A stretch of 64,000 bases of DNA from an uncultured Acidimicrobiaceae bacterium (GCA_963745175.1 CAVUWK010000006.1:143513-207512), one strand, 5' to 3'. Counted from the first letter of the stretch, positions 10,439 to 39,262 are shown. Made by a program: numbers and translations. The notes: a model not told the origin generated them from the sequence alone.

Positions 10439-11932
10439 ATGACCACGGATGTCGAGAACGTCATCACCGGCGTCGGCCTGCTCATCGACGGTGCTGTCGT
10501 GCCCGGGGGCGCGGGCACCTATCCGGTGACCAACCCGGCCCGCCCGGCCGAGGTCGTGTTCGACGCCCCTTCGACGTCGCCGGCACAGCTCGACCTGGCG
10601 GTGGCCGCCGCCCGACGGTCCCAGCCAGCCTGGGCCGCGCTGGACGTCGAAGACCGCGCCGCTCGCGTCGTGGCCGCCGCCGAGGCGGGCGTGGACGCCG
10701 TCGAGAGGCGGGACCTGGCCCGGCTGCTCACCCGCGAACACGGCAAGACGCACCTCGAGGCCATCTTCGACACCGCCACCATGGGCGGCATGGCGTCGGC
10801 CTTTGCGCCACTCGTCGCGGCGGCGCTCGCGCCCCGCGACCTCGCCGGCGGGACCACGCGCATCGAATGGGTGCCGCACGGCGTCGTGGCCGCCGTGCTG
10901 CCTTTCAATTGGCCTGTCTCGGTCATGGGCAACAAGGTGCTGCCCGCGCTGCTGGCCGGGGACACCGTCGTGGTGAAGGCGCCACCGACTTGTCCCGGCG
11001 CCGTGCTCCTCGTGGCGGCGGCGATGGCCGAGATGCTGCCTCCCGGCGTGCTCAACGTGGTCAACGGGCCCGAGGCCGCGCTCGGTGCCGCGCTGGTGGG
11101 CCACCCTGACGTCGACATGGTCTCCTTCACCGGTGGCGTGGGCACCGGCCAGGCCGTCATGGCCGCCGCTGCCGCCACCACCCGGCCCGTCGTGCTCGAG
11201 CTCGGAGGGAACGACGCCGCCATCCTCGCTCCGGACGTGGCGGGCGACGCCGGCCTGGCCGAGCGCATCGTGGAGGCCGCCTTCGTCACCAGCGGGCAGG
11301 TCTGCATGGCCATCAAGCGTCTCTACGTCCACCGGGACCGATTGGACGAGACGGTGGACGCGCTGGCCCAGCGGCTGGCCGCCGAGGTGGTCGGCGACGG
11401 ACTGGCCGACGTCGTGACCATGGGCCCGGTGCACACCGCGAGCGCCCGCGAGCGGGTCGAGGCGTTGGTGTCCGAAGCCGCGGCCTCCGGAGCCGCCGTG
11501 CTGCGGCCTGGCCGGGTGCGCGACGAGGACGTCGGATCGGGGGGCTACTTCGTGTCCCCGGCGCTGGTGGTCGCACCGTCCCGGGACGCCGGCATCGTGC
11601 GCCAGGAGCAGTTCGCCCCCGCCCTCCCGGTGATCCCCTACGACGACATCTCCGAGGCGGTCGAGGCGGCGAACGACTCGCCCTTCGGACTCTGCGCCTC
11701 GGTCTGGAGCAACGACGACGCGCTGGCAGCCGACGTGGCATCGCGCCTGTCGGCCGGGACGGTGTTCGTCAATGCCCACGGCCTGTCTGCGATCGACATG
11801 TTCGCGCCGATGGGCGGCTGGAAGCAGTCCGGCTTCGGCGTCGAGCTGGGGACCGAGGGCATGCAGGCCTTCGCCCGCCAGCGGGTACGGGTGCGTCGGC
11901 CAGGGCCGGCGGAACAGGAGGGACAGACATGA
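10439..11932 (+). CDS. NAD(P)-dependent aldehyde dehydrogenase
   Basis: MTTDVENVITGVGLLIDG...FTGGVGTGQAVMAAAA...LELGGNDAAIL...GQVCMAIKRLYVH carries the catalytic Glu and Cys motifs. ATGA overlap with the next gene at 11929-11932. Confidence 0.9.
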   Translation: MTTDVENVITGVGLLIDGAVVPGGAGTYPVTNPARPAEVVFDAPSTSPAQLDLAVAAARRSQPAWAALDVEDRAARVVAAAEAGVDAVERRDLARLLTREHGKTHLEAIFDTATMGGMASAFAPLVAAALAPRDLAGGTTRIEWVPHGVVAAVLPFNWPVSVMGNKVLPALLAGDTVVVKAPPTCPGAVLLVAAAMAEMLPPGVLNVVNGPEAALGAALVGHPDVDMVSFTGGVGTGQAVMAAAAATTRPVVLELGGNDAAILAPDVAGDAGLAERIVEAAFVTSGQVCMAIKRLYVHRDRLDETVDALAQRLAAEVVGDGLADVVTMGPVHTASARERVEALVSEAAASGAAVLRPGRVRDEDVGSGGYFVSPALVVAPSRDAGIVRQEQFAPALPVIPYDDISEAVEAANDSPFGLCASVWSNDDALAADVASRLSAGTVFVNAHGLSAIDMFAPMGGWKQSGFGVELGTEGMQAFARQRVRVRRPGPAEQEGQT

Positions 11933-13671
11933 CGGTCGCAGTCCGCGGTGGCACGGTTGTCGACGGCACGGGTGCGCCGGCGGTCCGGGCCGATGTTGTG
12001 ATCGACGGTGAGCGGGTCGTGGGCATCGGCGCCGACGCCGGAGTTGGCGCGGACACCGTGATCGACGCCACAGGGATGCTCGTCGCCCCCGGCTTCGTCG
12101 ACCTGCACACCCACTACGACGCCCAGCTCTTCTGGGACCCCAACGCCAGCCCCTCCCCGCTGCACGGCGTGACCACAGTGCTCGGCGGCAATTGCGGCTT
12201 CTCGCTCGCGCCGATGGCGCCCGAGCACGTCGACTACATCGCGCGGATGATGGCGCGGGTCGAGGGCATGCCCCTCGCCGCGCTGCGGGCCGGCCTGCCC
12301 TGGGACTGGGGCTCGTTCGGCGAGTGGATCGGCCGCCTGGACGGCCGCATCGCCGTGAACGCCGGCTTCCTCGTCGGGCACTCGACGCTGCGCCGGCTCG
12401 TCATGGGCGACCGCGCCGTCGGGGGCAGCGCCGACAATCGGGACATCGACGCCATGGAGGCGGCGCTGCACGGGGCGCTGGCTGACGGGGCGCTCGGCTT
12501 TTCGACCTCGCAGGTCCACACCCACAACGACGGCGACGGTCAGCCCGTCCCTTCGCGCGCGGCGAGCCGGGAGGAGATGGAACGCCTGGCCGCCGCGGTG
12601 CGCCAGCACGACGGCACCACGGTCGAGCTGATCGTGGCGGGCTGCCTCAACGGCTTCACCGACGAGGACATCGACTTCCTCTCCACCATGTCGCTGCTGG
12701 CCGATCGCCCGGTCAACTGGAACGTGCTCGGGGTCTCGGCCATGAACCCCGACAACGCCTGGAACCAGCTGGCCGCCGGTACGGCGGCCGCCGCCCGCGG
12801 CGCCACCGTCGTCGCCCTGACCCTGCCCCACACCATGCAGCTGCGCCTGAGCTTCGAGCACGGCGCCATCCTCGACGGCCTGCCCGGGTGGCGCGAGGTC
12901 TTCGCGCTGCCCGCGCCCGAGCGCATGGCGGCGCTGTCGGACCCCGCGACGCGACGCCGGCTCGACGCCGGAGCGCAGTCGGAGGAGGCCGGGATCCTGC
13001 GGCATCTGGCGGTGTGGGATCGCCTGATCTTTGACGAGGTGTTCGCCCCCGAGAACGCCGATGCCGAAGGTCGGAGTGTGGGGGAGGTGGCGCGGTCGCG
13101 TGGCCTCGAGCCGTTCGACGCCCTCCTCGACGTCGTGGTGGCCGACGGCCTGCGCACCGGACTGCGACCTCCGATGGGTGAGTCCGAAGCGGACTGGGTG
13201 CTGCGGGCGCAGGCTTGGCAGGACCCGCGCGCCATCGTCGGGGGCTCCGACGCCGGCGCCCACCTCGACACCATGTGCGGGGCCATCTATTCGACCTCCA
13301 TGCTGGGCGACGGGGTGCGGGCGCGCGGTCTGCTCAGTTGGGAGCAGGCGGTGCGGCTCCTGACCGATGTCCCGGCGCGTCTCTACGGGCTGCGCGACCG
13401 CGGCCGGCTGGTCCCCGGTGGCTTCGCCGACGTCGTCGTCTTCGACCCGACCGCCATCGGTCACGGCCCGGTGCGGACCCGCGACGACCTGCCGGGCGGC
13501 GCCAGTCGCCTCTATGCCGACGCGGTGGGTGTCGAGCACGTCCTGGTGAACGGCACCGAGATCGTCCGCAAGGGCGAATTCACTGGCGCCGTCCCCGGGC
13601 GCGTGCTGCGCTCGGGGACCGACACGGACACCGTGCACGCCGGGTCGGATTGGGCTGGCGCCGTCGCCTGA
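11929..13671 (+). CDS. D-aminoacylase-family amidohydrolase, paralog 2 (more divergent)
   Basis: 580 aa: MTVAVRGGTVVDGTG...MLVAPGFVDLHTHYDAQLFWD...LGGNCGFSLAP. Confidence 0.9.
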   Translation: MTVAVRGGTVVDGTGAPAVRADVVIDGERVVGIGADAGVGADTVIDATGMLVAPGFVDLHTHYDAQLFWDPNASPSPLHGVTTVLGGNCGFSLAPMAPEHVDYIARMMARVEGMPLAALRAGLPWDWGSFGEWIGRLDGRIAVNAGFLVGHSTLRRLVMGDRAVGGSADNRDIDAMEAALHGALADGALGFSTSQVHTHNDGDGQPVPSRAASREEMERLAAAVRQHDGTTVELIVAGCLNGFTDEDIDFLSTMSLLADRPVNWNVLGVSAMNPDNAWNQLAAGTAAAARGATVVALTLPHTMQLRLSFEHGAILDGLPGWREVFALPAPERMAALSDPATRRRLDAGAQSEEAGILRHLAVWDRLIFDEVFAPENADAEGRSVGEVARSRGLEPFDALLDVVVADGLRTGLRPPMGESEADWVLRAQAWQDPRAIVGGSDAGAHLDTMCGAIYSTSMLGDGVRARGLLSWEQAVRLLTDVPARLYGLRDRGRLVPGGFADVVVFDPTAIGHGPVRTRDDLPGGASRLYADAVGVEHVLVNGTEIVRKGEFTGAVPGRVLRSGTDTDTVHAGSDWAGAVA

Positions 13672-13694
13672 CGGCCGGAACGGCTCCCCGGTGT

Positions 13695-14423
13695 TCAGAG
13701 AAGCCGGGTCTCCAGGGCGACCTCGCGGGTTTGGTCACCCTCCCGGGTGAGCGAATAGGCCAGCTTGCCCTCGACTTCGGTGAAGACGTCCTGCAGTTCG
13801 GTGCCGAAGAAGACAAGCCCGGTCCCGTTCTCGGTGGCGTAGCCGTCGGGCAGAGTGCCCTCGGCGATGAGGCGGTGGATGAGCGGCCGCCGCTGTTCCT
13901 CCGCGTCGTGATGCGGGCTGTTGGACCAGGGCAGGAAGGCGAGGCCGTTGGTGACCGGCACCAGGGTGGGTCCGAAGGAGTCGGTGGTCCCGCCGACGTG
14001 CCAGCACAGGGAGCCGGCGGAGACCCCCTTCAGCACGACGCCGGTCTGCCAGCACTCGCGGAGCACCGTGTCGAGCCCGTGCAGGCGCCACAGGGCGAGC
14101 AGGTTGGCCGTGCTGCCGCCTCCCACCCAGATGACGTCCTGGGCCAGCAGGTGGGCGCGCACGTCGGGGACGTTGGGCATGGGGAACAGCGTCAAATGCG
14201 AGCTGACGAAGCCGAGCTTGGAGAACGCGTTGTGCGCGGCCGCCAGCCGCGCGGAGTCGTCACCGACGGCCGTGGCGATGATGCAGATCCGCGGGTGCTC
14301 GCCGGCACGGGCCAGATCGGCGGCCAGCCGGTACGACGGGCCCGGCCTGACGTTCGCCGGATCGGGCCCCTCGGCCTGGAACCCGATGGAGGTGGCGATG
14401 ATGGTCGGTTGGCGCGCCGCCAC
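13695..14423 (-). CDS. peptidase S51 (dipeptidase E) family protein
   Basis: 242 aa: ...ICIIATAVGDD...VIWVGGGSTANLLALW...LKGVSAGSLCW. Confidence 0.85.
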   Translation of the reverse strand: MAARQPTIIATSIGFQAEGPDPANVRPGPSYRLAADLARAGEHPRICIIATAVGDDSARLAAAHNAFSKLGFVSSHLTLFPMPNVPDVRAHLLAQDVIWVGGGSTANLLALWRLHGLDTVLRECWQTGVVLKGVSAGSLCWHVGGTTDSFGPTLVPVTNGLAFLPWSNSPHHDAEEQRRPLIHRLIAEGTLPDGYATENGTGLVFFGTELQDVFTEVEGKLAYSLTREGDQTREVALETRLL

Positions 14424-18988: not shown

Positions 18989-19063
18989 GGTGAGCGAGGG
19001 GTCTCGAACCCCCGACCTCCAGGACCACAACCTGGCGCTCTAACCAACTGAGCTACGCCCACC
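18989..19063 (-). tRNA. tRNA-His (anticodon GTG), with encoded G-1
   Basis: The reverse complement folds by hand as GGTGGGCG TA GCTC AGTTGGTTA GAGC G CCAGG TTGTGGT CCTGG AGGTC GGGGG TTCGAGA CCCCT CGCTCAC C. CCA is not encoded. Confidence 0.9.
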
Positions 19064-19181: not shown

Positions 19182-19258
19182 GCCCCGGTAGCTCAGCGGA
19201 ATAGAGCGGCTGACTTCTAATCAGCGGGTCGCAGGTTCAAATCCTGCCCGGGGCGCCA
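19182..19258 (+). tRNA. tRNA-Arg (anticodon TCT)
   Basis: GCCCCGG TA GCTC AGCGGAATA GAGC G GCTGA CTTCTAA TCAGC GGGTC GCAGG TTCAAAT CCTGC CCGGGGC G CCA. This is a full cloverleaf with CCA encoded. Confidence 0.92.
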
Positions 19259-25629: not shown

Positions 25630-26016
25630 GTGGCCGCCTCGCGGAGCGACCGGGCGCCCGATCCCCTGGGCAAGCGTGCATTGTTCTGGGTGCCGTCGCC
25701 GCGGCGAGTCGGGATCCGTCGAAGGGCGGGCTCAAGCCGTGGCGCTACCCGTCGGCAAGCGCGCCCTCTACTCGGGCGCCCGGCCCGAACCGGACAGCCT
25801 GGCGACGACATCGGGCAACCCCCTCGACGAGCGGGGCACTTTCACCGTCGAGTGCGCAGCGCTGCCGGCAGACCTCGCACATCGGCGTGCTCGACCTGCT
25901 CATCTTCCAGTTCCCGCTCGGGGTCTGGCTGCCCCGCGGGCCGATTCGACCACCGCATGACCTGCCCTTCGTGCCGCAAACGGGCCTGGTGCAGCGTCAC
26001 GCTCCGCCGGACCTGA
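25630..26016 (+). pseudogene. small Cys-rich (zinc-ribbon-like) protein with a hydrophobic segment, pieces in all three frames
   Basis: Frame 1: VAASRSDRAPDPLGKRALFW. Frame 2: LPVGKRALYSGARPEPDSLATTSGNPLDERGTFTVEC. Frame 0: CRQTSHIGVLDLLIFQFPLGVWLPRG. Frame 1 again: RFDHRMTCPSCRKRAWCSVTLRRT-stop. The reconstruction is tentative, and an antisense ORF competes for the 3' part. Confidence 0.35.
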
Positions 26017-26050
26017 ACGTCCTCTTCGGCAGGGCCATCGCGGCCTTCTT

Positions 26051-27700
26051 TCATGCCGCATCCGGGTCGAGCTCTGCCGCCTCCGCCTCCTCGTCGCCGG
26101 GCTGGACCGTAGGGAGCCGGCGGGTGAGCGCCAGCGCCACGAGGGTGATGAGTGCCAGGACGGCCAATGCGGCCCGCAGCCCGTTGATCCGGCTCTGTGC
26201 GTTCACGTCGACGATGGCGTGCGCCGCGTCCGGCGGGACGTCAGCCTTCTCGAGAGCGGCGTTGAGGTCGGCGTCGCTCACGAAGGGGATGCCTGCGGAG
26301 AGCTCCACCTGGGCCTGCGAGGACATCGCCTTCGGAATGGCGGGGTTGGAGGCGACCGATCCGAGGAACGTCGTGGTGAGCACCGCGATGAGGATGGCGC
26401 CCGACAGCGCGGTGCCGATGGACGCGCCGAGGTTCGTGACGGTGTTCTGCACGCCGCCCACCTCGCCGCTCTGGGAGTCGGGCACGGCCGAAACCGTCAC
26501 GCTGCCCAGCTGCGAAGCCAGGGTGCCGATGCCGAGTCCGGCGAGCAGCAGCGGACCGGTCACGATCTCGGCACCCGCCCCCGAGTCGAGTGCGGCGAGC
26601 AGGGCGACGATGCCGAGGAACAACAGGGCGAACCCGACGCGGACGATCCGGCGCGGGGACGTCCGCGGAAAGACCCGGGGCACGCCGACGGCGCTGGCCA
26701 GGAGCGTGATCGAGAGGGGGAGGAGGCGCACCCCCGTGGCGACGGCGGAGAGCCCGAGGGCGACCGAGAGGAAGAGGGGGATCACGAAGAACAGACCCGC
26801 CTGGAGCAGGAATTGGAAGAAGAACGACGTGAGGCCGGCCTGGAGCCGGGGGACCCGGAGCATGTGGGGGTCGACCAGGGCGGACTGGTGGCGCCGGAGC
26901 CGTCGGCTCTCCCACAGGACGAACAGCGTAAGCACGGCACCGCCCCCGAGGAGCAGCCAGACGACGGGGGACGTGCCGAGCCATTGGGGCGCCTCGGGCT
27001 TCGGTTGCACGAAGCCCCAGGTGCCCGAGCGGATCACGCCGTAGACGATCATGCCGAGCCCGGCGGCCGACAGCAGCGTCCCGACCGGGTCGAGGCGGAC
27101 GCCAGGCACCGCGGGCGAGTCGGCCATGCGCCTCGTGAGAAGCAGGATGACGAGCACCAGGATGACCTCGCCGACGAACACCCAACGCCAGCTGGCGTAG
27201 GTGGTGAGGAGACCGCCGATAAGGGGCCCCACGGCGACGGCAACGGCGCCCGCTGACGCCACGAGGCCGTACGCCCGAGGTCGCTCGGTGCGACCGAAGT
27301 TCGTCGCCACCAGCGCCACCACTGCCGGCATGATCAGTGCGGCACCGAGCCCTTCCAGGACGGACCAGCCGACGATGAGCACGGGGAGTGATGTGGCGAG
27401 CGCGGTGACGAGCGAGCCGCACCCGTACACGATGCAGCCGATCATGAAGGCGCGCTTGCGCCCCAGGATCTGCCCGACCTTGCCACCGGTGATCATGAAG
27501 GCAGCCATGACGAGCGTGTAGAGCGTGATGGCGAGCTGAATCCCCGTGACCGTGGTTCCGACGTCCTTGGCCACCGTGGCGATCGAGACGTTCATGACCG
27601 AGCTGTCCAAGGTCATGAGGAACTGCGCCGAGGCCAACGTGAGCAGGACGACCTGCCCACCCGCAGCCCGGTTCGGTCCGGCCCGCGCGGTGTCGGTCAC
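26051..27700 (-). CDS. MFS transporter, DHA2 family (second copy)
   Basis: VTDTARAGPNRAAGGQVVLLTLASAQFLMTLDSSVMNVSIATVAKDV...GGKVGQILGRKRAF...VLEGLGAALIMP. It is intact over about 550 aa. Start GTG 27700 (or 27718/27721). Confidence 0.88.
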   Translation of the reverse strand: MTDTARAGPNRAAGGQVVLLTLASAQFLMTLDSSVMNVSIATVAKDVGTTVTGIQLAITLYTLVMAAFMITGGKVGQILGRKRAFMIGCIVYGCGSLVTALATSLPVLIVGWSVLEGLGAALIMPAVVALVATNFGRTERPRAYGLVASAGAVAVAVGPLIGGLLTTYASWRWVFVGEVILVLVILLLTRRMADSPAVPGVRLDPVGTLLSAAGLGMIVYGVIRSGTWGFVQPKPEAPQWLGTSPVVWLLLGGGAVLTLFVLWESRRLRRHQSALVDPHMLRVPRLQAGLTSFFFQFLLQAGLFFVIPLFLSVALGLSAVATGVRLLPLSITLLASAVGVPRVFPRTSPRRIVRVGFALLFLGIVALLAALDSGAGAEIVTGPLLLAGLGIGTLASQLGSVTVSAVPDSQSGEVGGVQNTVTNLGASIGTALSGAILIAVLTTTFLGSVASNPAIPKAMSSQAQVELSAGIPFVSDADLNAALEKADVPPDAAHAIVDVNAQSRINGLRAALAVLALITLVALALTRRLPTVQPGDEEAEAAELDPDAA

Positions 27701-27779
27701 GGCCGCATTGTTGCCCACCACGACGGCGCCCGAGTGATTGGCGGGCGGCAAGGGCGCGTTGCACCCTGTGCAGCGCGGG

Positions 27780-27856
27780 TGGTCGGGATGCGGGGATTTG
27801 AACCCCGGACCTCCTGCTCCCAAAGCAGGCGCGCTGCCAAGCTGCGCTACATCCCG
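27780..27856 (-). tRNA. tRNA-Pro (anticodon TGG)
   Basis: Reverse complement: CGGGATG TA GCGC AGCTTGGCA GCGC G CCTGC TTTGGGA GCAGG AGGTC CGGGG TTCAAAT CCCCG CATCCCG A CCA. Confidence 0.92.
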
Positions 27857-27944
27857 TGGATTTGCTCCACGAATGGTACTTGGGTGACCGGGCCGGGCGG
27901 CGCCTGACCTTCCACCCGGTCCAGGCTTACGGACAAACCAAAGC

Positions 27945-29231
27945 TCATTTGTCGACCACCAGCTCTCCGTCGGCGCCGACCGCGACGTGAATGGGCGTGA
28001 GACCGCGCGGGGCCGGAGGATTCGACCACGGCGCCCGTGCTGGGGTCGAACTCCGAGCCGTGGCAGGGGCAGACGATCAACTTCGCTCCCGGTGAGTACC
28101 CGACCGTGCAGCCGGCGTGGGGGCAGATTGCGTCGTACGCGACGAACGAGTCCTTGGTCAGCTGGAGCACGAGGCCGGGGTCGCCGGTGGCCGGATCCTT
28201 GAACGTCGCGGCGCCGCCGACGGGCACCTGGCTGGCCAGGCCGATCGGCGTGCCGGTCGCCGGGGGGATGGTCGTGGCGGCGCCGGCCGGCTCCGTGGTC
28301 GTCGACGTGCCGGCGCCCGCGCCCGGGTTGGTGGGTGAGAGGGCGGCCGTGCCATCTTCGCCGGGGCTCTTCGCCCCTCCGACCGCCCGGCCCAGCCCGG
28401 CGGCCGCTGCCGCCACCACGCCGCCGATGACGGCCGACGCGGCCACCGCCGTCCCTCCGAGCACCAACGCCCGGCGGTCGACGGCATCGGGACCACGCTG
28501 GACGACGGGGATCCGCTCGTCGGCGAGGAACGGACAGCCCACGACGTCGCAACGCCGGCCCGCCTGGGCCGAGCAGGTGTCGTCCACGTAGTTGCCGCAG
28601 ACCTGTTGCACCCGGTCGAAACGGATGGGGACGACGGTGGTCGGTCCGGAGCGCGTTCTCGGTGGCGACCCGGGCCGCGATCACCCCGTCGAGCGAGAGC
28701 ACCCCGCCCGAAGCCGGCCAGGAGGAGCGGTATCCACGCGAACAGGAAGACGATGTCCGCCCCCGTGTAGTACGGCGACGAGTGGAAGCTCACCGTGAGG
28801 AAGAGCGTGAGGGAGAGCAGCATGCCGCCGGCTGCCGCCACCCGGGTCCACAACCCGAGCAGCGCCCCCATGCCGACCGCCAGCTCCGCCAGGGCGATCA
28901 GGATGCCGATCGGCACGGCAAAACGGAGCAGATGCCCCAGCAGCGGGTGGAGCGGGCTGATCCGGACGGACGCGATCATCTGGGCCTGGATGCTCGACGG
29001 GCTGTTGGCGTTGAAGAAGTTCGGATTGGCGAGCTTCTGCAGTCCCGCGAAGCAGAACGTGAAGCCGAGGAACGCCCGCAGGGGTAGCAACGCCCAGCCG
29101 GAGAGGGCGAAGGGCCGCGGTGGCGGCCCGTCGAATCGCGTTCTGCGCCGCCTGCGGGACCTTCCGCCGCGGCCGGCCGATGACTGGGCCGACCTCGTGG
29201 CCGGGGTGACGGGGCGCGACCGTTGTGACAT
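27945..29231 (-). pseudogene. DoxX-family membrane domain fused to a Cys4 linker, a twin-arginine-like hydrophobic helix and a Rieske [2Fe-2S] domain; three 1-nt frameshifts
   Basis: ATG 29231 follows AAAGGA. The DoxX-like region is LLPLRAFLGFTFCFAGLQKL...FAWIPLLLAGFGR, then (shift about 28703) VLSLDGVIAARVATENALRTD, then (shift about 28640) TVVPIRFDRVQQVCGNYVDDTCSAQAGRRCDVVGCPF...DRRALVLGGTAVAASAVIGG...CPHAGCTV-x12-CPCHGSEFD. After a shift near 28012 it ends PRGLTPIHVAVGADGELVVDK-stop (27945). No stop exists in any frame between the DoxX and Rieske parts, so they must be one gene. Confidence 0.65.
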
Positions 29232-29275
29232 GTGGATCCTTTCAGGGTCGAGCCGACGGCAGAAGACGGGCATGG

Positions 29276-31476
29276 TCAACCCGTCTGCGGGTGGGTCGGG
29301 GTCGTCCCGTCGGGCGCCAGGATGTCGAAGCCGTCGGGGATGCTGAGGAGCCCCGGTGCCGTGCCGGCGGTGTCCGTGAGGCCGTACTGCCACACGATGC
29401 TGTTGTCCGCGGGTCGATCACCACGACGCGGTTGCGGTAGTCGTCGTTCGCCATGATCAATCCGTTCGGCAGCCGCTCTGCCAGAGACGGCTTCTTCAAC
29501 ATGCCGTCCCCGGCGGTGACGTCATAGGTCCACACCACCGCGCCGGACCGGTGAATGGTCAGGATGCGGCCCTCCGCGGGCGGGTCGTAGTCGGCGAGGA
29601 GATAGAGGTTCGGACCGATCTGTTGGGGATCGGAGGGGTAGTTCACGGTTGGCAGGTGCACGGTCCACACCAACGCGCCCGCCGGGGTGTACTCGGTGAT
29701 CCACGAGCCGTTGATCTCCGAGACCAGTACGTCGCCGTTGGCGAGCGGGGTGTCGCCGTTGGGGTACCCGACGCCGGTTGGCGGGTTGTGCACCGCGTCG
29801 TTGTTCGTGCCGATCTGACCGAGCTGGGCGCCGGCGGGGGAGATGAACAGGATCCGGTCGTTCATGGCGTCGGCCACCGTGACGTTGCCGTTCTTGAGGA
29901 GGTAGGCGTCGTCGGGTTGGTTCAGGTAGCCGGGGGCGCTGCCGGGCCGACCGGGATGGCCGTACTGCCAGAGGATCTTCCCCGAGGGGTAGCCGATCTC
30001 GACAATGGTGTGGTTCTCCTCCTGGTTGGAGATGATCCCGGCCCCCTTGTGGAAGAAGAAGGCGTCGTCCGGAAAGTAGAACCCGCCTGGTGGGGGCGGC
30101 ATCGTGGCGGACGGGTACTGCCACTGCAGGTTCCGCGCCGGGTCGATGACCAGGAGCCGGTCGTTGCCGCGGTCCGCGATCAAGAGGTGGCCCCTGAAGG
30201 GAGCGCCCGCGCCCGCAACGCCGACCGGCCCACCGTACGAGCTCGGTCGCAGCGAGATCACGCTCTGCAGGGGTCCGGAGGCGACGCCCGCCTGGTCGTT
30301 CCCCGACTGGTGGGCGACCTCGCCGCCCACGATGTACCCCACCGAAGAGGACCCTGTCCCGAGCGTGGCATACCCCCCGAAGGCCACGCCCTGGGGGAGG
30401 AGGCCGGCGTCGGCGACCCGATGGCTTCGCCCGTCGAACTCGTAGATCTGCGTCAGTGTCTGCCCGTCACCGGTCTGCCCACCCGCAACGTAGATGTGCC
30501 CGGCGAGCACGAAGGCCGCCGCGCCGTAGAGCGGCTGGGGCAGCGTGCCGACGACACGGACCGAGTGCGTGGAGGGGTCGATCTGCTGGATGTCCGCGGT
30601 GGCGGTTACCGCGCTCCCTGCACCGCTTCCGCTCTGCCCGCCGAAGGCGAAGATGGTGTGGCCGAGAGCGACCACCGCGGGGTAGCGCACCGGGACCTTG
30701 AGGGTGGCGGCCGTACTGAAGTGCGATCCGTCACCGGTGGCCAGCACCGAGGGCTCGTACGTGGTGCCGTCGTAGCCGCCCACGAGGTAGACGGTCCGTC
30801 CGACTGTGGCCGACGCCAGATCGGAGCGGGGCTGGGGGAGCTGGCCGGCGACGCCGCCCTTGCCCGTGGCGGATTGGAGCGACTGCACGGCGGCAAACGT
30901 GGTGGGCGAGCCGCCGCCGAAGACGAACGACGCCGACCCGAGCTGCGCACCCGCGCCGTCGTGGACGACCTCGGGGAGGGAACCGGAGGCGGTCACCGTG
31001 CCGGTCCGGGGGTCCAGCCAGGACGCGGCCCCGAGTGAGCTCCCCGAGGGGGACAGCCCGCCCAGTATTCGCAGCCGTCCGCCGACCGCGACGAGAGCCT
31101 CACGCGAGATCGGCGCGCCCAGCTGCCACGGCTCGATGCCGGCCTCGAGCGAAGGCGGACCGGCGGTGCCTTCGCGGGCGCGCCCCGCAGTCAGGCCGGT
31201 GCCTGATGCCACAGCTGTGGTGGTGGCGACACGGCGAGCGGGAGGGGCATGGCCGCCCGACGTGACGATCACGAGCAGGGCGACGAGGAGGGCCAGGGCA
31301 CTTCCCAGCACTGCGGCGCGGCGACGGCGGATCTGGTTCCGCCGCTGGCGCCGCCCGGCGCGCCCGGAGCTGGTCACTGCGGCGGGGCCGCGGGGGTGCC
31401 CGGGTCCACAGCGCCCCGCCCTCCGTGGGGCCCGACGTGAACCGACCGGCACACGGCTCCGTGACCCTAACGTCAT
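29276..31476 (-). CDS. membrane-anchored protein with a Kelch-like beta-propeller plus a second arylsulfotransferase/PQQ-like beta-propeller; C-terminal frameshift
   Basis: Arg-rich N-terminus plus TM helix AAVLGSALALLVALLVIV. Kelch-like blades: VYLVGGYDG, IFAFGGQSG, IYVAGGQTG. Second propeller: NDRLLVIDPARNLQWQY, KILWQYGHPG, NDRILFISP, ALVWTV, AVVWTY, NRVVVIDPR. The family-like end DNSIVWQYGLTDTAGTAPGLLSIPDGFDILAPDGTTPTHPQTG-stop (29276) is out of frame, from a 1-nt deletion near 29408-29411. Confidence 0.7.
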
Positions 31477-31497
31477 TCGGAGGCGGCCGAGGGTCAG

Positions 31498-32865
31498 CTA
31501 CGCCCGTTCCACCGCCAGGACCTGCCACTCGTCGGGCAGGCCCTTGAGGTTGTGCCAGCCGCGGTCGTCGAAGACGATGCCCGAGCCGACCACGAGGTCA
31601 CGCACGGTGCCGGTGACGAGCACCTCGCCGGGTCCCGCCAGGGCGCTCACCCGCGAGGCGATGTGGACGGCGAGCCCGCCGATGTCGTCACCGCGCAGTT
31701 CCACTTCGCCGGCGTGCAGGCCGGCCCGCAGCTGCAGGCCGAAGCTGCGGGCGGTCGCCACCATCGCCTCCGCGCAGCGCACCGCCTGCGCCGGCGCACC
31801 GAAGCGGGCCAGTATCCCGTCGCCCGTCATCTTGACGAGGATGCCGTCGTGGCGGGCCAGGAGCCGTTCGACGTTGACGTCGAACTCGTCGAGGACGGCG
31901 CGCCACTGGCGGTCGCCTGCTTCGGCGGCGCGCACGGTCGAGTCCACGATGTCGGTGAAGAGCACCGCGGCGAGCAGGCGTGTCGCGGCGTGCTGCCCTC
32001 GCGTTCCCGTGACGAACTCCTCGATCTCGTCGACGATGGAGTCGAACTCACCCGACCACGCCAGGAGGTCGGGCCCCGTGTGGGTGACCAGTCGTGCGCC
32101 GGCGATGTGCTCCGAGAGGTAACGGCCGTGCTCGCTCAGGTTGGCGAAGCTGTCGAGGCGGGCGAAGATGAGCGTCGGGCAGGTGATGGAGGGAAGGCAC
32201 CAGCGCACGTCGGTGGCGAAGGTGAGGAGGTTGAAGGCGAGGGCGGTTGCCGGGCTGGCGCCGCGCCGGGCCGCCCGTCCCCACCACTCCTGGAAGCCGA
32301 CCCGATGGGCCAGGCTCGGGGCGAAGATGACGATGTCTTGTGGCACGTCGTCCTCGCTCAGCGGGACCTCGATGCTCCGCGCGGCCGTCAGCTCCGCCTC
32401 GGCCACGCCGAAGCCGTAGTCCTCGGCTCGGCCCACTCTGGCCGTGCCGTTGACGAGGATCAGCGAGATGACGCGCTCGGGGTGCGTCGCCGCCAGCCAG
32501 ATGGCGGCCATCGAGCCGCTGGCCGAGGCCAGGACGACGGCACGGTCGCACCCGGCCGCGTCCATGACGGCGAGCCCGTCGCGTCCCCAGCCCTCGATGG
32601 AGGGATCCGTTCCCGTCGGCAGGGGATCGGACAGCCCGAGGCCCCCGGCGTCGAAGCGGAGCAGCCGCGAGAAGCTCGCCAGCCGCTCGGTGTAGCGGAG
32701 CCAGTTGGGCTCGTCGACGGTCTCGTCGATGGAGATCATGAGCCCGCTGTTGAACTCGAGCACGTCGACGGTGTCGTCCCCAGCGCTCGCCGGGTCGGAC
32801 CCCCAGACCTGGTAGCCGACGTGGATGCCGTCCCGGAGGGCGTACTGGGTCAGGGGCGACTCCAT
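31498..32865 (-). CDS. class III adenylate/guanylate cyclase with an N-terminal alpha/beta-hydrolase-like domain (LipJ/Rv1900c-like architecture)
   Basis: MESPLTQYALRDGIHVGYQVWG... is hydrolase-like. Cyclase motifs follow: AAVLFTDIVDSTVRA and LVKMTGDGILARFG. The stop lies 21 nt from the propeller gene's start. Confidence 0.85.
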   Translation of the reverse strand: MESPLTQYALRDGIHVGYQVWGSDPASAGDDTVDVLEFNSGLMISIDETVDEPNWLRYTERLASFSRLLRFDAGGLGLSDPLPTGTDPSIEGWGRDGLAVMDAAGCDRAVVLASASGSMAAIWLAATHPERVISLILVNGTARVGRAEDYGFGVAEAELTAARSIEVPLSEDDVPQDIVIFAPSLAHRVGFQEWWGRAARRGASPATALAFNLLTFATDVRWCLPSITCPTLIFARLDSFANLSEHGRYLSEHIAGARLVTHTGPDLLAWSGEFDSIVDEIEEFVTGTRGQHAATRLLAAVLFTDIVDSTVRAAEAGDRQWRAVLDEFDVNVERLLARHDGILVKMTGDGILARFGAPAQAVRCAEAMVATARSFGLQLRAGLHAGEVELRGDDIGGLAVHIASRVSALAGPGEVLVTGTVRDLVVGSGIVFDDRGWHNLKGLPDEWQVLAVERA

Positions 32866-32938
32866 ACGAGGTGCAGTCTGCCGTGCGGGGCGGCCCGACG
32901 ACGCGGGAGCGGGCGGAACGGGCGCAGTCGTGCCGGGT

Positions 32939-34672
32939 TCAGCGGGCGCCGCGCACCAGGCGGCCCGGCAGCGCACCGGTGGGCTCGCCGTGCTCGAACG
33001 TCACCGTTCCCCCCTTGATCGTGGCCACGTATCCCGACGCCTTCTGCAGCAACCGGCGACCGCCGGCCGGGAGGTCTGCGGTCACGTACGGCGCGCCCAG
33101 CGAGAGCGCGTCGTAGTCGATGAGGTTGAAGTCGGCCAGCGCGCCGGGCTCGACCGTGCCGCGGTCCGCCATGCCGTACAGACGTGCCGTGTCATGCGTC
33201 TGCTTCTTGATCACGTACTCGAGCGGGAGCGTCTCGCCCCGGCTGCGGTCGCGGGTCCAGTGCGTGAGCATGAAGGTCGGCATGGAGGCGTCGCAGATGG
33301 TCCCGGTGTGGGCGCCCCCGTCGGCCAGCCCGCTCAGGCCCTGCGGGTGCAGCAGCATCTCGCGCACGTGGTCGAGGTCGCCCGTGGCGTAGTTCAGGAT
33401 CGGGAGGTACAGCAGGCCCTGCCCTCCGTCGCGCGCCATCTCGTCGTAGGCGACCTCCAGCGGGGAGCGGCCGGATGCCGCGGCCAGCCCGGCCAGTGAG
33501 CGCTCGGGTCCGGGTTCGTAGTCCGGCGGGTTCCCGAGGACGAACGTGCGCTCGTACGCCTTCTTCATCGCCTCGGCCTGGGCCGGGGAGGACGGCGTCC
33601 ACGACACGATCGACCGCCGCACCTCGGGGTCGGCCAGCGCGGTCCCGAGCTCCGCGTTCGACGCGCAGCGCGCACGCAACGCCGCGTACGCCGGGAATTC
33701 GGAGAACAGGCACAGGGTCGTGTGGTGGCCGGTCAGAATGCCCGTGGGCCGGCCCGCAATCTGGGGGAAGAGCTGCGCGCCCTCGGCGCACGCGTCGAGG
33801 GACACCTCGAGCTGCTTGCGCCACAGCTCGGGATCGCCGTCGGCCTGGAGCAGTGCGTACGACACCGGCCGATCGATGGCCGTCGAGAGCCGGCGCATCC
33901 AGTCGACCTCGTGCATGACGTCCTCGAGCATCTCGCCCGCCGCGCCCAGCGGGGCCAGCTCGAAGACGCCGGCGCCGGCCTCGCCCAGGGCGGACCCGAT
34001 GCCGAACAGCTCGTCCTCGGCCGCGAACGTGCCCGGCACCAGTTCGCCGTCGATGGCGCGGTGGCCCAGGGTGCGCGAGGTGGAGAACCCGAGCGCTCCG
34101 GCCCGCAGCGCCCCGAGCACGATCACGCGCATCGCCTCGATGTCCGCGGCGTCGGCTGCCTCGTTGCGGGCGCCGCGCTCACCCATGACATAGGCCCGCA
34201 CGGCCGCATGCGGCACCTGTGTGCCGACGTCGACCGTCCAGCACCGCTGCTCGAGCGCGTCCAGGTACTCGGGGAAGGTTTCCCACTCCCACTCGATCCC
34301 CTCGGCCAACGCCGTGCCGGGGATGTCCTCGACCCCTTCCATGAGGCCGATGAGCCAGTCGTGGCGGTCGGGCCGCGCCGGCGCGAACCCGACGCCGCAG
34401 TTGCCCATCACGAGCGTCGTGACGCCGTGCCACGAGGACGGGGCGAGCTCCGAGTCCCAGGTGACCTGGCCGTCGTAGTGGGTGTGCACGTCGACCCAAC
34501 CAGGCGTCACCAGCAGGCCGTCGGCCTCGATGGTCCGGGTGGCGCCGCCCTGGACGGTGCCCACCTCGGTGATGCGGCCGGAATCGACTGCGACATCGGC
34601 AGCACGTGCCGCCGCGCCCGTGCCGTCGACGAGCGTCCCCCCCGTGATGATCAGGTCGTGCACGCCCCGCAT
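32939..34672 (-). CDS. N-acyl-D-amino-acid deacylase family amidohydrolase, paralog 3
   Basis: 577 aa: MRGVHDLIITGGTLVDGTG...LLVTPGWVDVHTHYDGQVTWD...VMGNCGVGFAPA. It closely resembles paralog 1. Confidence 0.9.
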   Translation of the reverse strand: MRGVHDLIITGGTLVDGTGAAARAADVAVDSGRITEVGTVQGGATRTIEADGLLVTPGWVDVHTHYDGQVTWDSELAPSSWHGVTTLVMGNCGVGFAPARPDRHDWLIGLMEGVEDIPGTALAEGIEWEWETFPEYLDALEQRCWTVDVGTQVPHAAVRAYVMGERGARNEAADAADIEAMRVIVLGALRAGALGFSTSRTLGHRAIDGELVPGTFAAEDELFGIGSALGEAGAGVFELAPLGAAGEMLEDVMHEVDWMRRLSTAIDRPVSYALLQADGDPELWRKQLEVSLDACAEGAQLFPQIAGRPTGILTGHHTTLCLFSEFPAYAALRARCASNAELGTALADPEVRRSIVSWTPSSPAQAEAMKKAYERTFVLGNPPDYEPGPERSLAGLAAASGRSPLEVAYDEMARDGGQGLLYLPILNYATGDLDHVREMLLHPQGLSGLADGGAHTGTICDASMPTFMLTHWTRDRSRGETLPLEYVIKKQTHDTARLYGMADRGTVEPGALADFNLIDYDALSLGAPYVTADLPAGGRRLLQKASGYVATIKGGTVTFEHGEPTGALPGRLVRGAR

Positions 34673-34734
34673 CGTCTCACGCCAGCCGGCGCCACGCGCG
34701 CCGGTTCTGGTGCACCCTGCTCAAACCGGTGGGG

Positions 34735-34890
34735 TCAGACCTTGGCTTTGCCCAAGATCCGGTTCATCTTCGTTCCGCAGACCGGGCAGGTGCCCTGTGC
34801 GGCGCGGCGGCCGTTGGCCAGTTCCACTTCCTGGCCGTCGAACTCCCGCTTCTCCCGGCACTTCACGCAGTACCCCTCGTAGTTCGCCAT
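34735..34890 (-). CDS. DUF5679-like small zinc-ribbon protein (51 aa)
   Basis: MANYEGYCVKCREKREFDGQEVELANGRRAAQGTCPVCGTKMNRILGKAKV has two CxxC pairs. AAGGAG lies 6 nt upstream of the ATG. Confidence 0.7.
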   Translation of the reverse strand: MANYEGYCVKCREKREFDGQEVELANGRRAAQGTCPVCGTKMNRILGKAKV

Positions 34891-35940: not shown

Positions 35941-37302
35941 GTGATGCGTGCCACGGCCGAGCCAATGGAGGGAAACCTCGTCCGCCTGAGTGTGGAGATC
36001 GATGAGCCCGAGTTCGATCGGGCGCTCGGCGACGTGGTGCGCTCCCTGGCCCAACAGGTGCGTGTCCCGGGCTTCCGGCCCGGCAAGGTCCCACGCAAGG
36101 TGCTCGAGGCCCGCATGGGCGGGGCCGGCGCGCTGCGCGCGGAAGCGCTGCGCGAGGCGTTGCCCGACTTCTACGCGCGGGCCGTTGTCGACACCGAGCT
36201 CGACCCGATCGCCCAACCAGAGATCGACATCACCGGCGGTGAGGACGAAGGCGCCGTTTCCTTCGACGCCGTCGTGCAGGTGCGGCCGATCGTCGCCATT
36301 CCCGGCTACGAGGGCCTGCACGTGACGCTCCCGGGTCTGACCGTGACCGAGGACGAGGTCCAGAGTCAGATCGACCGGCTGCGCGAGAACGATGCCGAAC
36401 TGGAAGTCGTCAACCGCCCCGCCATCGACGGCGATCTGGTGACGATCGACCTGCACGCCAACGACGCCTCGGGCGCCGAGGTGGTCGGTGTCGACGACTA
36501 CCTGTACGAAGTCGGCTCAGCCTCGGTGGTTCCCGAGCTCGACGGAGAGCTGCACGGCGCCAAAGCCGGCGCCATCCTCGCCTTCGACACACCGAGCCCC
36601 GACGACCCCGAAGAGAACGTTGCTTTCCGGGTGCTCGTCAAGGAGGTCAAGGTCAAGAAGCTGCCGGAGGCGACCGACGAATGGGCGGCTGAGAGCTCCG
36701 AGTTCGCCACCGTGGCCGAGCTGCGTTCGGACATCGAGACGCGGATCGGTCGCGTCAAGCTCATGCAGAGCCAGGTGGCGCTGCGCCAGAAGACCATCGA
36801 GGCACTGGCCGAGCTCGTCGCCGACGATGTGGTGCCCGAGGTCCTGGTCGATGCTGAGGTCAACGAGCGCCTCCACGACCTCCAGCACCGGCTGGAGGCC
36901 CAGAAGCTGGACTTGGCCGAGTACTTCCAGGCCACCGGCACGACGCCCGACGAGCTGCTGGCGGCCGTCCGCGTCGACGCCCAGGCGGCAGTCAAGGCTG
37001 ACCTGGGGCTGAGAGCCCTGGTGGAGGCCGAGGAGTTGACGCTCAGTGACGACGAGCTCCGTGCCGAGATAGTCACCATGGCGGAACGGATGGGTACCAC
37101 CCCGACGGAGCTGCGCCGCCAACTCGACACGGCCGGCCGGACCGGCGCGGTACGCTCGGAGTTGCGCAAAGGGAAAGCGCTGGAATGGTTGCTGGACCAC
37201 GTGGATCTCTTCGACGAAGAGGGCAAACCGATGTCTCGGGACGACCTCAGGGTGGATGCCTCGGGAGAGGGCGAAGTCGAGCAGAGCGAGGAGAGCGAGT
37301 GA
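35941..37302 (+). CDS. tig: trigger factor
   Basis: 453 aa: ...[45 protein letters not shown]. Position upstream of clpP-clpX. Confidence 0.93.
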
Positions 37303-37304
37303 AG

Positions 37305-37952
37305 ATGCAGAGTGCGGGGGAGCCGATGAAGACCTACAACTACCTGGTTCCGACCGTCATCGAGTCGTCCAACCGCGGTGAGCGCGCCTATGACCTGTAC
37401 TCACGGTTGCTCCGTGAGCGGATCATCTTTCTCGGTACGCCCGTCGACGATGCGGTGGCCAACCTCGTCTGCGCCCAGATGCTCTTCTTGGAGTCCGAGG
37501 AGCCGGACAAGGACATCCACCTCTACATCAACTCGCCCGGCGGCGAGATCACGGCGTTGTTCGCCATCTACGACACGCTGAAGTTCATCAAGGCCGACGT
37601 GTCCACCTTCTGCTTCGGGCAGGCGGCCTCGGCGGCAGCCGTGCTGCTGGCGGCAGGCGCCAAGGGCAAGCGCTTCGCACTGCCCCACGCCCGCGTGCTG
37701 CTGCACCAACCGTGGGGCGGAGTCGAGGGCCAGGCCAGCGACATCGAGCTGCAGGCCAAAGAGATTCTCCGCATGCGTGACCTCCTCTCAGGGATGTTGG
37801 CCGAGGACACCGGGCAGACGCAGGAGAAGGTGGCGCAGGACACCGACCGCGACTTCATCATGACGGCGGAGGAAGCGGTGACCTACGGCGTGATCGACGA
37901 GGTCATCACGGCACGGACGGTGGCCCCGCTCGAGGCCATCGGCGCCGCGTAG
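37305..37952 (+). CDS. clpP: ATP-dependent Clp protease proteolytic subunit
   Basis: [16 protein letters not shown]...[10 protein letters not shown]...[11 protein letters not shown] (catalytic Ser context) ...LLHQPWGG. Confidence 0.95.
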
Positions 37953-37984
37953 GCCGAGCAGGCACGGACGGGAGAGGCGATCTG

Positions 37985-39262
37985 GTGGCGAAGTTCGGAG
38001 AGGGCGGGGATCTCGTCAAGTGCAGTTTCTGCGGCAAGACGCAGAAGCAGGTCAAGAAGCTGATCGCCGGCCCGGGTGTCTACATCTGCGACGAGTGCAT
38101 CGACTTGTGCAACGACATCATCGCCGAGGAGCGCGACGAGTCCACCGAGCTGAGCTTCGAGGATCTGCCGAAGCCGCGTGAGATATTCGACTTCCTCAAC
38201 GACTACGTCGTTGGGCAGGAGTACGCCAAGAAGATCCTCTCCGTGGCCGTCTACAACCACTACAAGCGCGTGCAGGCCGGACCGCCGGCCGCCGAGGACG
38301 GCGTCGAGCTGGCCAAGTCGAACATCCTCCTCCTCGGGCCGACCGGGTGTGGCAAGACGCTCTTGGCCCAGACGCTGGCCCGCATGCTCAACGTGCCCTT
38401 CGCCATCGCGGACGCCACGGCACTCACCGAGGCCGGGTATGTGGGCGAGGACGTGGAGAACATCCTCCTGAAGCTGATCCAGGCCGCCGACTACGACGTC
38501 AAGCGGGCCGAGACCGGCATCATCTACATCGACGAGATCGACAAGATCGCCCGCAAGAGCGAGAACCCGTCCATCACCCGTGACGTCTCAGGTGAGGGCG
38601 TGCAGCAGGCCCTGCTGAAGATCCTCGAGGGCACCACGGCCTCGGTGCCGCCCCAGGGCGGCCGCAAGCACCCGCACCAGGAGTTCATCCAGATCGATAC
38701 GACGAACATCCTCTTCATCTGCGGTGGGGCCTTCGCCGGGTTGGACAAGCTGATCGAGTCGCGCATCGGCAAGCGCGGCATCGGCTTCCGGGCAGAGGTG
38801 CACCGCAAGGACCGCGACGACGGTGAGATCCTGCGTCACGTGCTCCCCGAGGACCTCATCAAGTTCGGGCTCATTCCCGAGTTCATCGGGCGCCTGCCCG
38901 TGGTGAGCGCCGTGTCGCCGCTGTTCAAAGATGCGCTGGTGCAGATCTTGGTCGAGCCGAAGAACGCGCTGACCCGGCAGTACGAGCGGGTGTTCGCGCT
39001 CGACAACGTGGAGCTCGAATTCACGCCCGATGCGCTCGAGGCCGTGGCCGAGCAGGCGCTGTTGCGGGGCACGGGCGCCCGCGGCCTGCGGGCCATCCTC
39101 GAAGAGGTCCTGCTCGACGTGATGTACGACCTGCCCAGCCGTACCGACGTCGGCAAGTGCGTGGTGGATCGCTCCGTGGTGCTCGACCGGGTGGCCCCGA
39201 CGCTGGTGCCGCTCGGAGGCGCGCCGGTCAAGTCGACCCGCTCGCGCCGCGCCGCCTCCTGA
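37985..39262 (+). CDS. clpX: ATP-dependent Clp protease ATP-binding subunit ClpX
   Basis: Zinc ribbon [26 protein letters not shown], Walker [19 protein letters not shown]. Confidence 0.97.

Follow-up and report, generated by a model that had tools for sequence, protein, structure and literature searches.

The subject of this analysis is a stretch of 64,000 nucleotides (nt) from an uncultured Acidimicrobiaceae bacterium (GCA_963745175.1, CAVUWK010000006.1:143513-207512; G+C content about 70%), hereafter called the window, in which a minus-strand gene at 27945-29231 encodes a DoxX membrane domain fused to a Rieske iron-sulfur domain. This fusion belongs to a large family of five-transmembrane (TM) proteins that is catalogued but experimentally uncharacterised, and the window adds nothing to what thousands of database entries show. 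An initial annotation, made from the sequence alone, had joined the gene to an upstream gene for a membrane-anchored double beta-propeller and to a gene for a class III cyclase as one undescribed redox module. The reading that we favour instead, and that we hold to have about an even chance of being correct as a whole, is that of a stand-alone relay inserted by the Sec and twin-arginine translocation (Tat) pathways, for which the propeller is facultative and the cyclase a bystander, and in which the insertions and deletions (indels) seen in the window are artefactual.

The DoxX-Rieske fusion and its family

In the window the gene is interrupted by three single-base insertions, and the protein discussed here is the 427-amino acid (aa) product obtained after their removal, which runs from an ATG at 29231, preceded by the Shine-Dalgarno-like motif GAAAGGA, to a TGA at 27947-27945. 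A search of 5.8 billion proteins gave 2911 matches at E≤1e-5, and the top 120, whose domains were checked, were all full-length proteins of 380-470 aa with DoxD, DoxX and Rieske domains. The closest match, P0001, is an intact 427-aa open reading frame (ORF) with 96% identity, located on a 93-kb ENA contig. The GTDB species representatives contain 263 loci that code for a relative, and the best 80 of these were used for the locus statistics reported throughout. The fusion ORF was continuous in 77 of the 80 loci, while the other three carried one frameshift each. Separate DoxX and Rieske genes, or orthologs split by an intervening stop, which would speak against a fusion, were found at none of them. 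Because the orthologs are single intact ORFs and never split, the fusion that had been proposed from the sequence is real.

A profile search over 1.84 billion cluster representatives (clusters at 50% identity) retrieved 406 clusters at E≤1e-30, and a Rieske motif was present in 113 of the 150 top representatives. Named members come from the Acidimicrobiales, from Syntrophothermus (Bacillota) and from the Ktedonobacteraceae (Chloroflexota), and they carry automatic names such as "Rieske 2Fe-2S domain-containing protein", "TQO small subunit DoxD" and "thiosulfate dehydrogenase [quinone] large subunit". The claim that the system had not been described was therefore only partly borne out. A literature search on DoxX and Rieske found no paper on the fusion, and DoxX is not mentioned in the survey of extracytosolic flavinylation, but the architecture is catalogued and has thousands of database members under generic names.

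Two of these names, used in the JGI and NCBI annotations, would make the protein a thiosulfate:quinone oxidoreductase (TQO) or a related sulfur-compound:quinone oxidoreductase, with the Rieske domain in the place of DoxA. The Pfam DoxD match is indeed over its cut-off, as would be expected if the names were right. The names are, however, automatic transfers from the DoxD domain; the protein scored 18.4 bits against the NCBIfam model TQO_large_DoxD (NF041179), whose cut-off is 300, and genes for DoxA, TetH or a rhodanese were present in none of the neighbourhoods examined. Membership of the TQO family was rejected on this score and on the gene context, a TQO-type activity is very improbable, and the current TQO and thiosulfate dehydrogenase names of the fusion are unsupported domain transfers.

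On the repaired protein the matches to DoxX (PF07681, 33.7 bits; cut-off 23.6), DoxD (PF04173, 27.4 bits; cut-off 22.7) and Rieske (42.4 bits) all exceeded the Pfam cut-offs, in agreement with the initial domain calls. The DoxX/DoxD domain occupies residues ~46-180 (28690-29096, minus strand, as are all parts of the gene) and consists of four hydrophobic segments (residues 46-178), predicted by AlphaFold2 (AF2) as helices with a predicted local distance difference test (pLDDT) value above 90. It is followed, in a predicted cytoplasmic loop, by the four-cysteine (Cys4) motif C-x7-C-x7-C-x4-C (28534-28599), and then by a twin-arginine pair within the sequence DRR (28471-28476; R254 and R255, both conserved). 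This pair stands directly before TM5, an Ala/Gly-rich segment (28387-28470) identified by hydropathy and covered by an AF2 helix of residues 249-283, after which comes a conserved Gly-Arg. A low-complexity tether of ~40 aa rich in Gly, Pro, Thr and Ala (28255-28386), with variable length, low pLDDT and the lowest conservation in the protein (0.46), leads to the Rieske [2Fe-2S] domain (27948-28254), which was found by Pfam, PDB profiles and Foldseek and has its CPHAGC and CPCH boxes at 28060-28125. The Cys4 motif, the RR helix, the linker and the CPH...CPCH centre were thus all present as first described.

Hydropathy analysis gave five TM segments, with 12 Lys and Arg residues in the N-terminus and 2, 1, 0 and 9 in the successive loops. 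This distribution places the N-terminus, the 82-residue Cys4 loop and the DRR sequence in the cytoplasm, and the linker and the Rieske domain outside, so that the outward orientation assumed for the Rieske domain is supported by the predicted topology, that is, by charge counts, motif conservation and the AF2 model. Conservation was assessed in 52 fusions from the Acidimicrobiales and in 113 diverse fusions with identities down to 33%. In the first set the four cysteines, R254, R255, G282, R283 and the Rieske ligands reached a conservation of 98% or more, and there is a Lys six residues after G282-R283. In the diverse set the conservation of the RR pair was still 90% or higher, and the Rieske ligands did not vary. 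The Cys4 insert was found in only about one quarter of the diverse representatives, and is therefore a subfamily trait of the Acidimicrobiales type. The outer loops of the DoxX domain had conservation values of 0.85 and 0.94, level with or above those of the TM helices, which suggests that the face that would bear the Rieske domain holds a functional site.

An earlier AlphaFold run with 49 close homologs was unusable (pLDDT 46.8). With the diverse alignment of 113 sequences, the AF2 model reached a pLDDT of 80.8 and a predicted template modelling score of 0.71, with values above 90 for the DoxX helices and the Rieske domain. TM5 was predicted as a long helix and the linker as disordered, and the Cys4 region as a helix plus beta-hairpin at a pLDDT of about 60-72. 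The Rieske boxes CPHAGC and CPCHGS, which include both disulfide cysteines, are of the bc1/b6f type. In box II (CPCHGS-E-F) the Ser is retained and a Phe stands in the place of the Tyr of bc1/b6f proteins; judging from Rieske mutagenesis, this may mean a somewhat lower potential, compatible with menaquinol. PDB profiles matched the Rieske domain to b6f PetC, QcrA and AioB, and Foldseek matched it to 8hn2, 3azc and 5cxm with a probability of 1.00 and root-mean-square deviations of 1.5-2.5 Å, as well as to AioB. In both the Foldseek and the PDB sequence searches the solved relatives were those of the Rieske domain, with none for the DoxX or Cys4 parts.

Gene neighbourhood and the proposed three-gene module

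The cyclase gene (31498-32865), the propeller gene (29276-31476) and the fusion gene do follow each other on the minus strand as the initial annotation had stated. They belong to a run of seven consecutive minus-strand genes spanning 26000-34890, and their shared direction is therefore not specific to these three. The spacing of 44 nt between the propeller and fusion genes is exact. That of 21 nt between the cyclase and propeller genes holds for the longest propeller ORF (ATG at 31476), and would grow to ~120-186 nt with the start suggested by the N-termini of homologs (~31377-31311).

When the 80 species loci were centred on the fusion, the propeller gene was directly upstream in 20-21 of them, the cyclase gene was present in 25 and the amidohydrolase gene, which in the window lies 5' of the cyclase, in 24. 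On a tree of the fusion proteins, the cyclase-linked loci formed one clade, the window's own, in which the cyclase was always accompanied by the amidohydrolase. Eight members of this clade lack the propeller (L006, L017, L026, L029, L034, L036, L044 and L057), and two loci from other clades (L052 and L073) show the propeller-then-fusion order without a cyclase. The converse test, centred on the propeller, comprised 66 informative metagenome loci, of which 20 had a fusion gene within 4 kb: about 15 in the arrangement of the window, one reversed (L119), three divergent (L147, L148 and L156) and one at a distance of 3 kb (L149). About 30 other propeller loci have the order Lactamase_B, propeller, DedA, without the fusion. 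Overall, the propeller was absent from ~70-75% of the fusion loci and the fusion from ~70% of the propeller loci, and their proximity, seen in a minority of the loci, took three orientations and involved three or more fusion clades.

These counts bear directly on the model first proposed, in which the propeller protein would be an extracytoplasmic oxidoreductase whose electrons reach the quinone pool by way of the fusion, with the cyclase providing cAMP-linked control, all as one module. The recurrence of propeller and fusion, including the reversed and divergent loci and the separate clades, exceeds what inherited synteny alone would give, and both proteins are predicted to face outwards; to this extent their association stands. 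On the other hand, all three genes were found together only in the window's clade, where the cyclase never occurs without the amidohydrolase and where the propeller has been lost from several members; the Lactamase_B-propeller-DedA loci do without the fusion, and distant propellers, like distant fusions, do without the other two genes. Nothing beyond adjacency supports cAMP-linked control, and the propeller protein is of Kelch and NHL/BamB-like type, with no redox-cofactor signature shown by Pfam or PDB profile searches. A three-gene module is therefore distinctly improbable. The cyclase adjoins the fusion in one clade only, and there together with the amidohydrolase, so that its position is plain synteny and its part that of a bystander. 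For the fusion, the propeller is a recurrent but facultative and lineage-restricted neighbour at most, above chance in frequency and not a defining partner. Some genomes hold two DoxX-Rieske paralogs, namely L013 and L055 in the metagenome-assembled genome (MAG) MFD02671.bin.2.63, and L045 and L068 in palsa_457. In MFD02671.bin.2.63 the L055 copy is linked to a propeller and the L013 copy is not, which suggests sub-functionalisation within the family.

Other genes recur near the fusion in different lineages. An OmpR-type regulator was found within 400 nt in 18 of the 80 loci, a HAMP/HisKA kinase in 21, DedA (also within 400 nt) in 17 and NAGPA in 10, while a trio of ApbE, Ferric_reduct and NuoF-like genes stood by the fusion in five. 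A search of the window for homologs of the two-component proteins, DedA, NAGPA and the NuoF-like protein gave no match; similarly, two distant fusions (L087 and L088) have none of the propeller, two-component, DedA, NAGPA or ApbE-trio neighbours. The fusion thus behaves as a stand-alone gene placed in cell-envelope or redox neighbourhoods that differ among lineages. The neighbourhoods of the ApbE type, whose genes relate to electron transfer outside the cytoplasm and to the cell envelope, lie by the fusion in L045 (4110-11505), L038 (232-11555), L016, L052 and L064, and by the propeller in L084 (1-8109). They also hold a response regulator and a histidine kinase and, in some cases, UbiA, DprE1-like, short-chain dehydrogenase/reductase (SDR) and NAGPA genes.

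The frequency of regulators and kinases raises the possibility that the fusion serves a two-component system as an accessory redox sensor, with the adjacent histidine kinase reading the state of the Rieske cluster or of the quinone site, and not a bulk electron carrier. The regulator lies downstream of the fusion and the kinase next to it, across the most divergent clades of the Acidimicrobiales and with intergenic gaps down to 29-56 nt, and a precedent exists in the DoxD operon of Acidithiobacillus, which is under an adjacent two-component system (PMC5093147). Such a system is nevertheless absent from the window, from the window's clade and from ~75% of the loci, and the distant fusions do without it. 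Where it does occur, regulation of the fusion gene by the two-component system would account for the adjacency just as well. We consider a sensory role improbable and retain the reading of the protein as a relay.

The two upstream genes encode proteins close to those first described. The cyclase protein matched Pfam Guanylate_cyc and, weakly, Abhydrolase_1, and has the LipJ-like architecture of an alpha/beta-hydrolase followed by a class III cyclase. It shares this architecture over its full length with LipJ (Rv1900c) of Mycobacterium tuberculosis, and aligned end to end with the LipJ model NF058673 of NCBIfam, with 439 bits against an equivalog cut-off of 800, so that it is no equivalog of LipJ. 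The propeller protein has an Arg-rich N-terminus, one hydrophobic helix and Kelch repeats (Kelch_1, 59.6 bits, cut-off 20.1; Kelch_6, 57.7 bits, cut-off 25.3), with a PDB profile match to the Kelch domains of KLHL12 and KEAP1 over residues 150-330, in accordance with the anchored Kelch-like propeller that had been recognised. Its second propeller had been compared to those of arylsulfotransferases and pyrroloquinoline quinone (PQQ) enzymes. Only the generic, BamB-like model PQQ_2 passed its cut-off in this half of the protein (30.2 bits against 27.6), whereas Arylsulfotran_2 remained below (13.6 bits against 27), and the nearest solved relatives of residues 400-575 are NHL domains (TRIM71, 1.4e-14). 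An arylsulfotransferase or PQQ-enzyme identity was accordingly rejected, and the second propeller is best described, from its profile matches, as NHL/BamB-like.

The remaining members of the minus-strand run are a gene with an Amidohydro_3 domain (32942-34672), a gene with a DUF5679 domain within 26000-34890, and a gene for a major facilitator superfamily (MFS) transporter (26000-27718). The seventh member, a tRNA-Pro(TGG) gene detected by ARAGORN and Rfam on the same strand (27780-27856), lies 90 nt 3' of the stop codon of the fusion. Directly upstream of the run, on the plus strand, is a block of trigger factor, ClpP and ClpX genes (35965-39262) whose proteins are 97-100% identical to those of L002, a complete relative; for this reason the region is regarded as conserved core-genome synteny and not as an island. 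The order amidohydrolase, LipJ-like cyclase, propeller, DoxX-Rieske, tRNA-Pro and MFS is ordinary vertical synteny. Two more tRNA genes are divergent, with ~120 nt between them (18989-19062, minus strand; 19182-19255, plus strand). The Rfam scan of the window returned tRNAs only, and a scan of 25.8-35.2 kb for sigma-70 promoters and terminators gave nothing informative. The Amidohydro_3 (D-aminoacylase-like) family has three paralogs in the window, at 5911-7605 and 11935-13611 on the plus strand and at 32942-34672 on the minus strand. The third is 96% identical to its ortholog in L002; against that same ortholog the first shows 54% and the second 34% identity.

Frameshifts in the fusion and propeller genes

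The four indels noted from the sequence were all confirmed by three-frame translation and by DNA alignment of the window with four orthologs. Three are extra bases in the fusion gene, at 28715, 28652 and 28023 (the last in the C-terminal part of the Rieske domain), each of them unique to the window in the five-way alignment, and the fourth is a base missing at ~29406, close to the 3' end of the propeller gene; the cyclase gene is intact when compared with L002. The additional statement that none of the three frames contains a stop between the DoxX and Rieske parts does not hold to the letter, as TGA codons occur at 28683 and 28160 in two of the frames. The repaired reading path avoids both. 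Two further frameshifts, again by comparison with L002, were observed in a 91-codon plus-strand ORF without Pfam match (25739-26013), which overlaps the 3' end of the MFS gene and is conserved in L001 and L002.

Such a concentration of frameshifts could mean that the fusion gene is a true pseudogene at a decaying locus. Three of them fall in a gene of 1.28 kb, one at the end of the gene upstream and two in the 91-codon ORF 2 kb away, so that all six lie within 3.6 kb, while 11 neighbouring genes (~14 kb) are unbroken relative to the L002 proteins. This clustering, which is not expected under a uniform random error, weighs against the artefactual origin that we favour and leaves room for a recent and real inactivation. 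No insertion falls within a long homopolymer, and a single frameshift was seen in just three of the 80 other species loci. These statements on frameshift rate cover the ~17.6 kb of the window that can be compared with L002; a scan for frame switches in the G+C content of third codon positions, intended to give the rate for the whole window, missed known frameshifts and was not used.

The substitution pattern argues in the opposite direction. The repaired fusion gene has a ratio of nonsynonymous to synonymous substitution rates (dN/dS) of 0.14 when compared with the 96%-identical ortholog and of 0.20 when compared with L002, in the range of its neighbours (0.11-0.20), and this rules out an old pseudogene. 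Three indels against ~46 substitutions do not fit neutral decay under such clear purifying selection, being far too many for the time that the dN/dS permits, and neither in-frame stops nor large deletions accompany them. Moreover, the sister contigs are long-read assemblies bearing indels of their own. The closest public ortholog contig, L001, is a nanopore assembly from ENA (suffix np1212) with indels at the 5' end of its propeller gene (7842-8091, corresponding to 31102-31356 in the window), owing to which its propeller was called as 617 aa instead of ~700; L055, L058 and L062 have one frameshift each in the fusion gene. Public long-read MAGs of this lineage thus carry sporadic frameshifts.

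The site of the tRNA-Pro gene, between the fusion and MFS genes (27780-27947), varies among strains. In L002 three additional genes of 127, 138 and 613 aa, without Pfam matches, are found at this site (11392-14052), and they are lacking in the window and in L001. The site may be an integration or otherwise variable hotspot, and as such a possible cause of local consensus errors. All four indels most likely arose as errors in the consensus of a long-read metagenome assembly, close to this strain-variable site, and are not signs of decay; we regard true inactivation of the gene in this genome as unlikely. Sequences of this kind illustrate that frameshifts in long-read MAGs can conceal such fusions from annotation.

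Proposed function and relation to known systems

On the favoured reading, the four N-terminal helices, with the DoxX/DoxD fold, would be inserted by Sec and YidC with the N-terminus inside, and the Cys4 knuckle of the cytoplasmic loop would most likely be a structural Zn or Fe site. The RR pair in front of the weakly hydrophobic TM5 would then pass the folded and cluster-loaded Rieske domain to the Tat translocase, so that a [2Fe-2S] domain of the bc1/b6f type should end up at the external surface of the membrane, held by a flexible linker of ~40 residues. By analogy with the DoxD of TQO, a quinone or quinol, probably menaquinol, may bind at the conserved outer face of the DoxX domain. The tethered Rieske domain would exchange single electrons at that place and carry them, without a cytochrome b, to extracytoplasmic partners that differ among lineages. 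The dependence on Tat, the coupling to quinone, the direction of electron flow, the metal of the Cys4 site and the artefactual nature of the indels are each inferred.

Besides the clustering of the frameshifts, the following points count against this reading. The binding of quinone by DoxX is extrapolated from the archaeal TQO DoxD, to whose equivalog model the fusion scores only 18.4 bits of the 300 needed. A Rieske cluster accepts one electron, and a second acceptor for the oxidation of a quinol is not evident. Lastly, the hydrophobicity of TM5 is only intermediate, with a crude Hessa-scale sum of 1.66, compared with -0.03 for TM4, 0.42 for TM3 and 3.2 for TM1 and TM2. A more specific form of the relay is possible, if unlikely, in which the polypeptide alone would be a cytochrome-b-independent menaquinol:acceptor relay, with the propeller or the ApbE-flavinylated and ferric-reductase systems as partners and the Cys4 site as a checkpoint of assembly or Tat proofreading. 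In this form the relay would be a Rieske-based quinol-oxidising module of a class not recognised before, widespread among the Acidimicrobiales of soil and peat, the Chloroflexota and the Bacillota.

Almost all Rieske centres known to be linked to the quinone pool are subunits of the cytochrome bc1 and b6f complexes. A DoxX-Rieske protein working without cytochrome b would, if the favoured reading is correct, be a new and very compact link from the quinone pool to the exterior, present in the Acidimicrobiales, an abundant group in soils and peat. It would also add one more family to the few membrane proteins whose insertion requires both Sec and Tat.

Among the known systems, the DoxDA-type TQO of Acidianus and Acidithiobacillus shares with the fusion an extracytoplasmic partner domain and a DoxD/DoxX membrane domain for which an interaction with quinone is assumed. 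The fusion differs in having a Rieske domain in place of DoxA; DoxA was not found in L001, L002, L087 or L088, and no sulfur-oxidation genes are nearby. Another actinobacterial integral membrane protein of the DoxX family is Rv3005c of M. tuberculosis, part of a membrane oxidoreductase complex with SseA and SodA, for which a coupling of extracytoplasmic or thiol redox reactions to the membrane has been proposed (summarised in PMC10943396). Unlike the fusion, it has separate partner proteins and is without Rieske domain, Cys4 motif and RR-TM5 element.

With respect to the Rieske domain, the fold of ~100 residues is shared with small bc-type Rieske proteins, such as PetC3 of Synechocystis (5cxm), a protein of Chlorobaculum (8hn2) and kuste4569 of Kuenenia (9rk4), and with AioB (Foldseek target TM-scores of 0.65-0.87, 23-35% identity). 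These proteins are exported by Tat, carry just one anchor or signal, at the N-terminus, and act in bc/b6f complexes or with a catalytic subunit, whereas the fusion is anchored by a DoxX domain in the same polypeptide. Closer in its layout is QcrA, the Rieske subunit of the actinobacterial bc1 complex (e.g. Sco2149 of Streptomyces coelicolor), which depends on both Sec and Tat. Like the fusion, it has a polytopic N-terminal anchor with an even number of Sec-type helices, an RR pair directly before the last TM helix and a C-terminal Rieske domain of bc type (CxHxGC/CxCHGS) exported to the outer face, an export that for the fusion is predicted. In the fusion, however, the anchor is the four-helix DoxX domain and not a pair of helices, an insert with the Cys4 motif lies in the cytoplasmic loop, and the tether is ~40 aa long. 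Its NCBIfam scores were 43.9 bits for QcrA (cut-off 275) and 47 for PetC (cut-off 250), and neither qcrB or qcrC nor other cytochrome b/c genes were found within 10 kb on either side in L001 or L002, or in the syntenic block of the window.

The closest parallels in membrane insertion are the polytopic proteins with dual Sec/Tat dependence (Keller 2012; Tooke et al. 2017). Among the latter authors' examples, noted in passing, is a Rieske homologue with five TM domains from Kitasatospora, KSE_30950, with an RR pair before the fifth (PMC5449189); judged from that published description, it is a possible member of the DoxX-Rieske family. Sco3746, a five-TM heme and molybdenum cofactor protein, and a polyferredoxin have the same layout as the fusion of four TM segments, an RR pair, TM5 and an extracytoplasmic cofactor domain, with hemes and molybdenum cofactor in Sco3746 where the fusion has its Rieske centre. 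With the dual Sec/Tat proteins as a group, the DoxX-Rieske fusion shares the four TM segments, the RR pair, TM5 with the positive charge that follows it, and the cofactor domain beyond.

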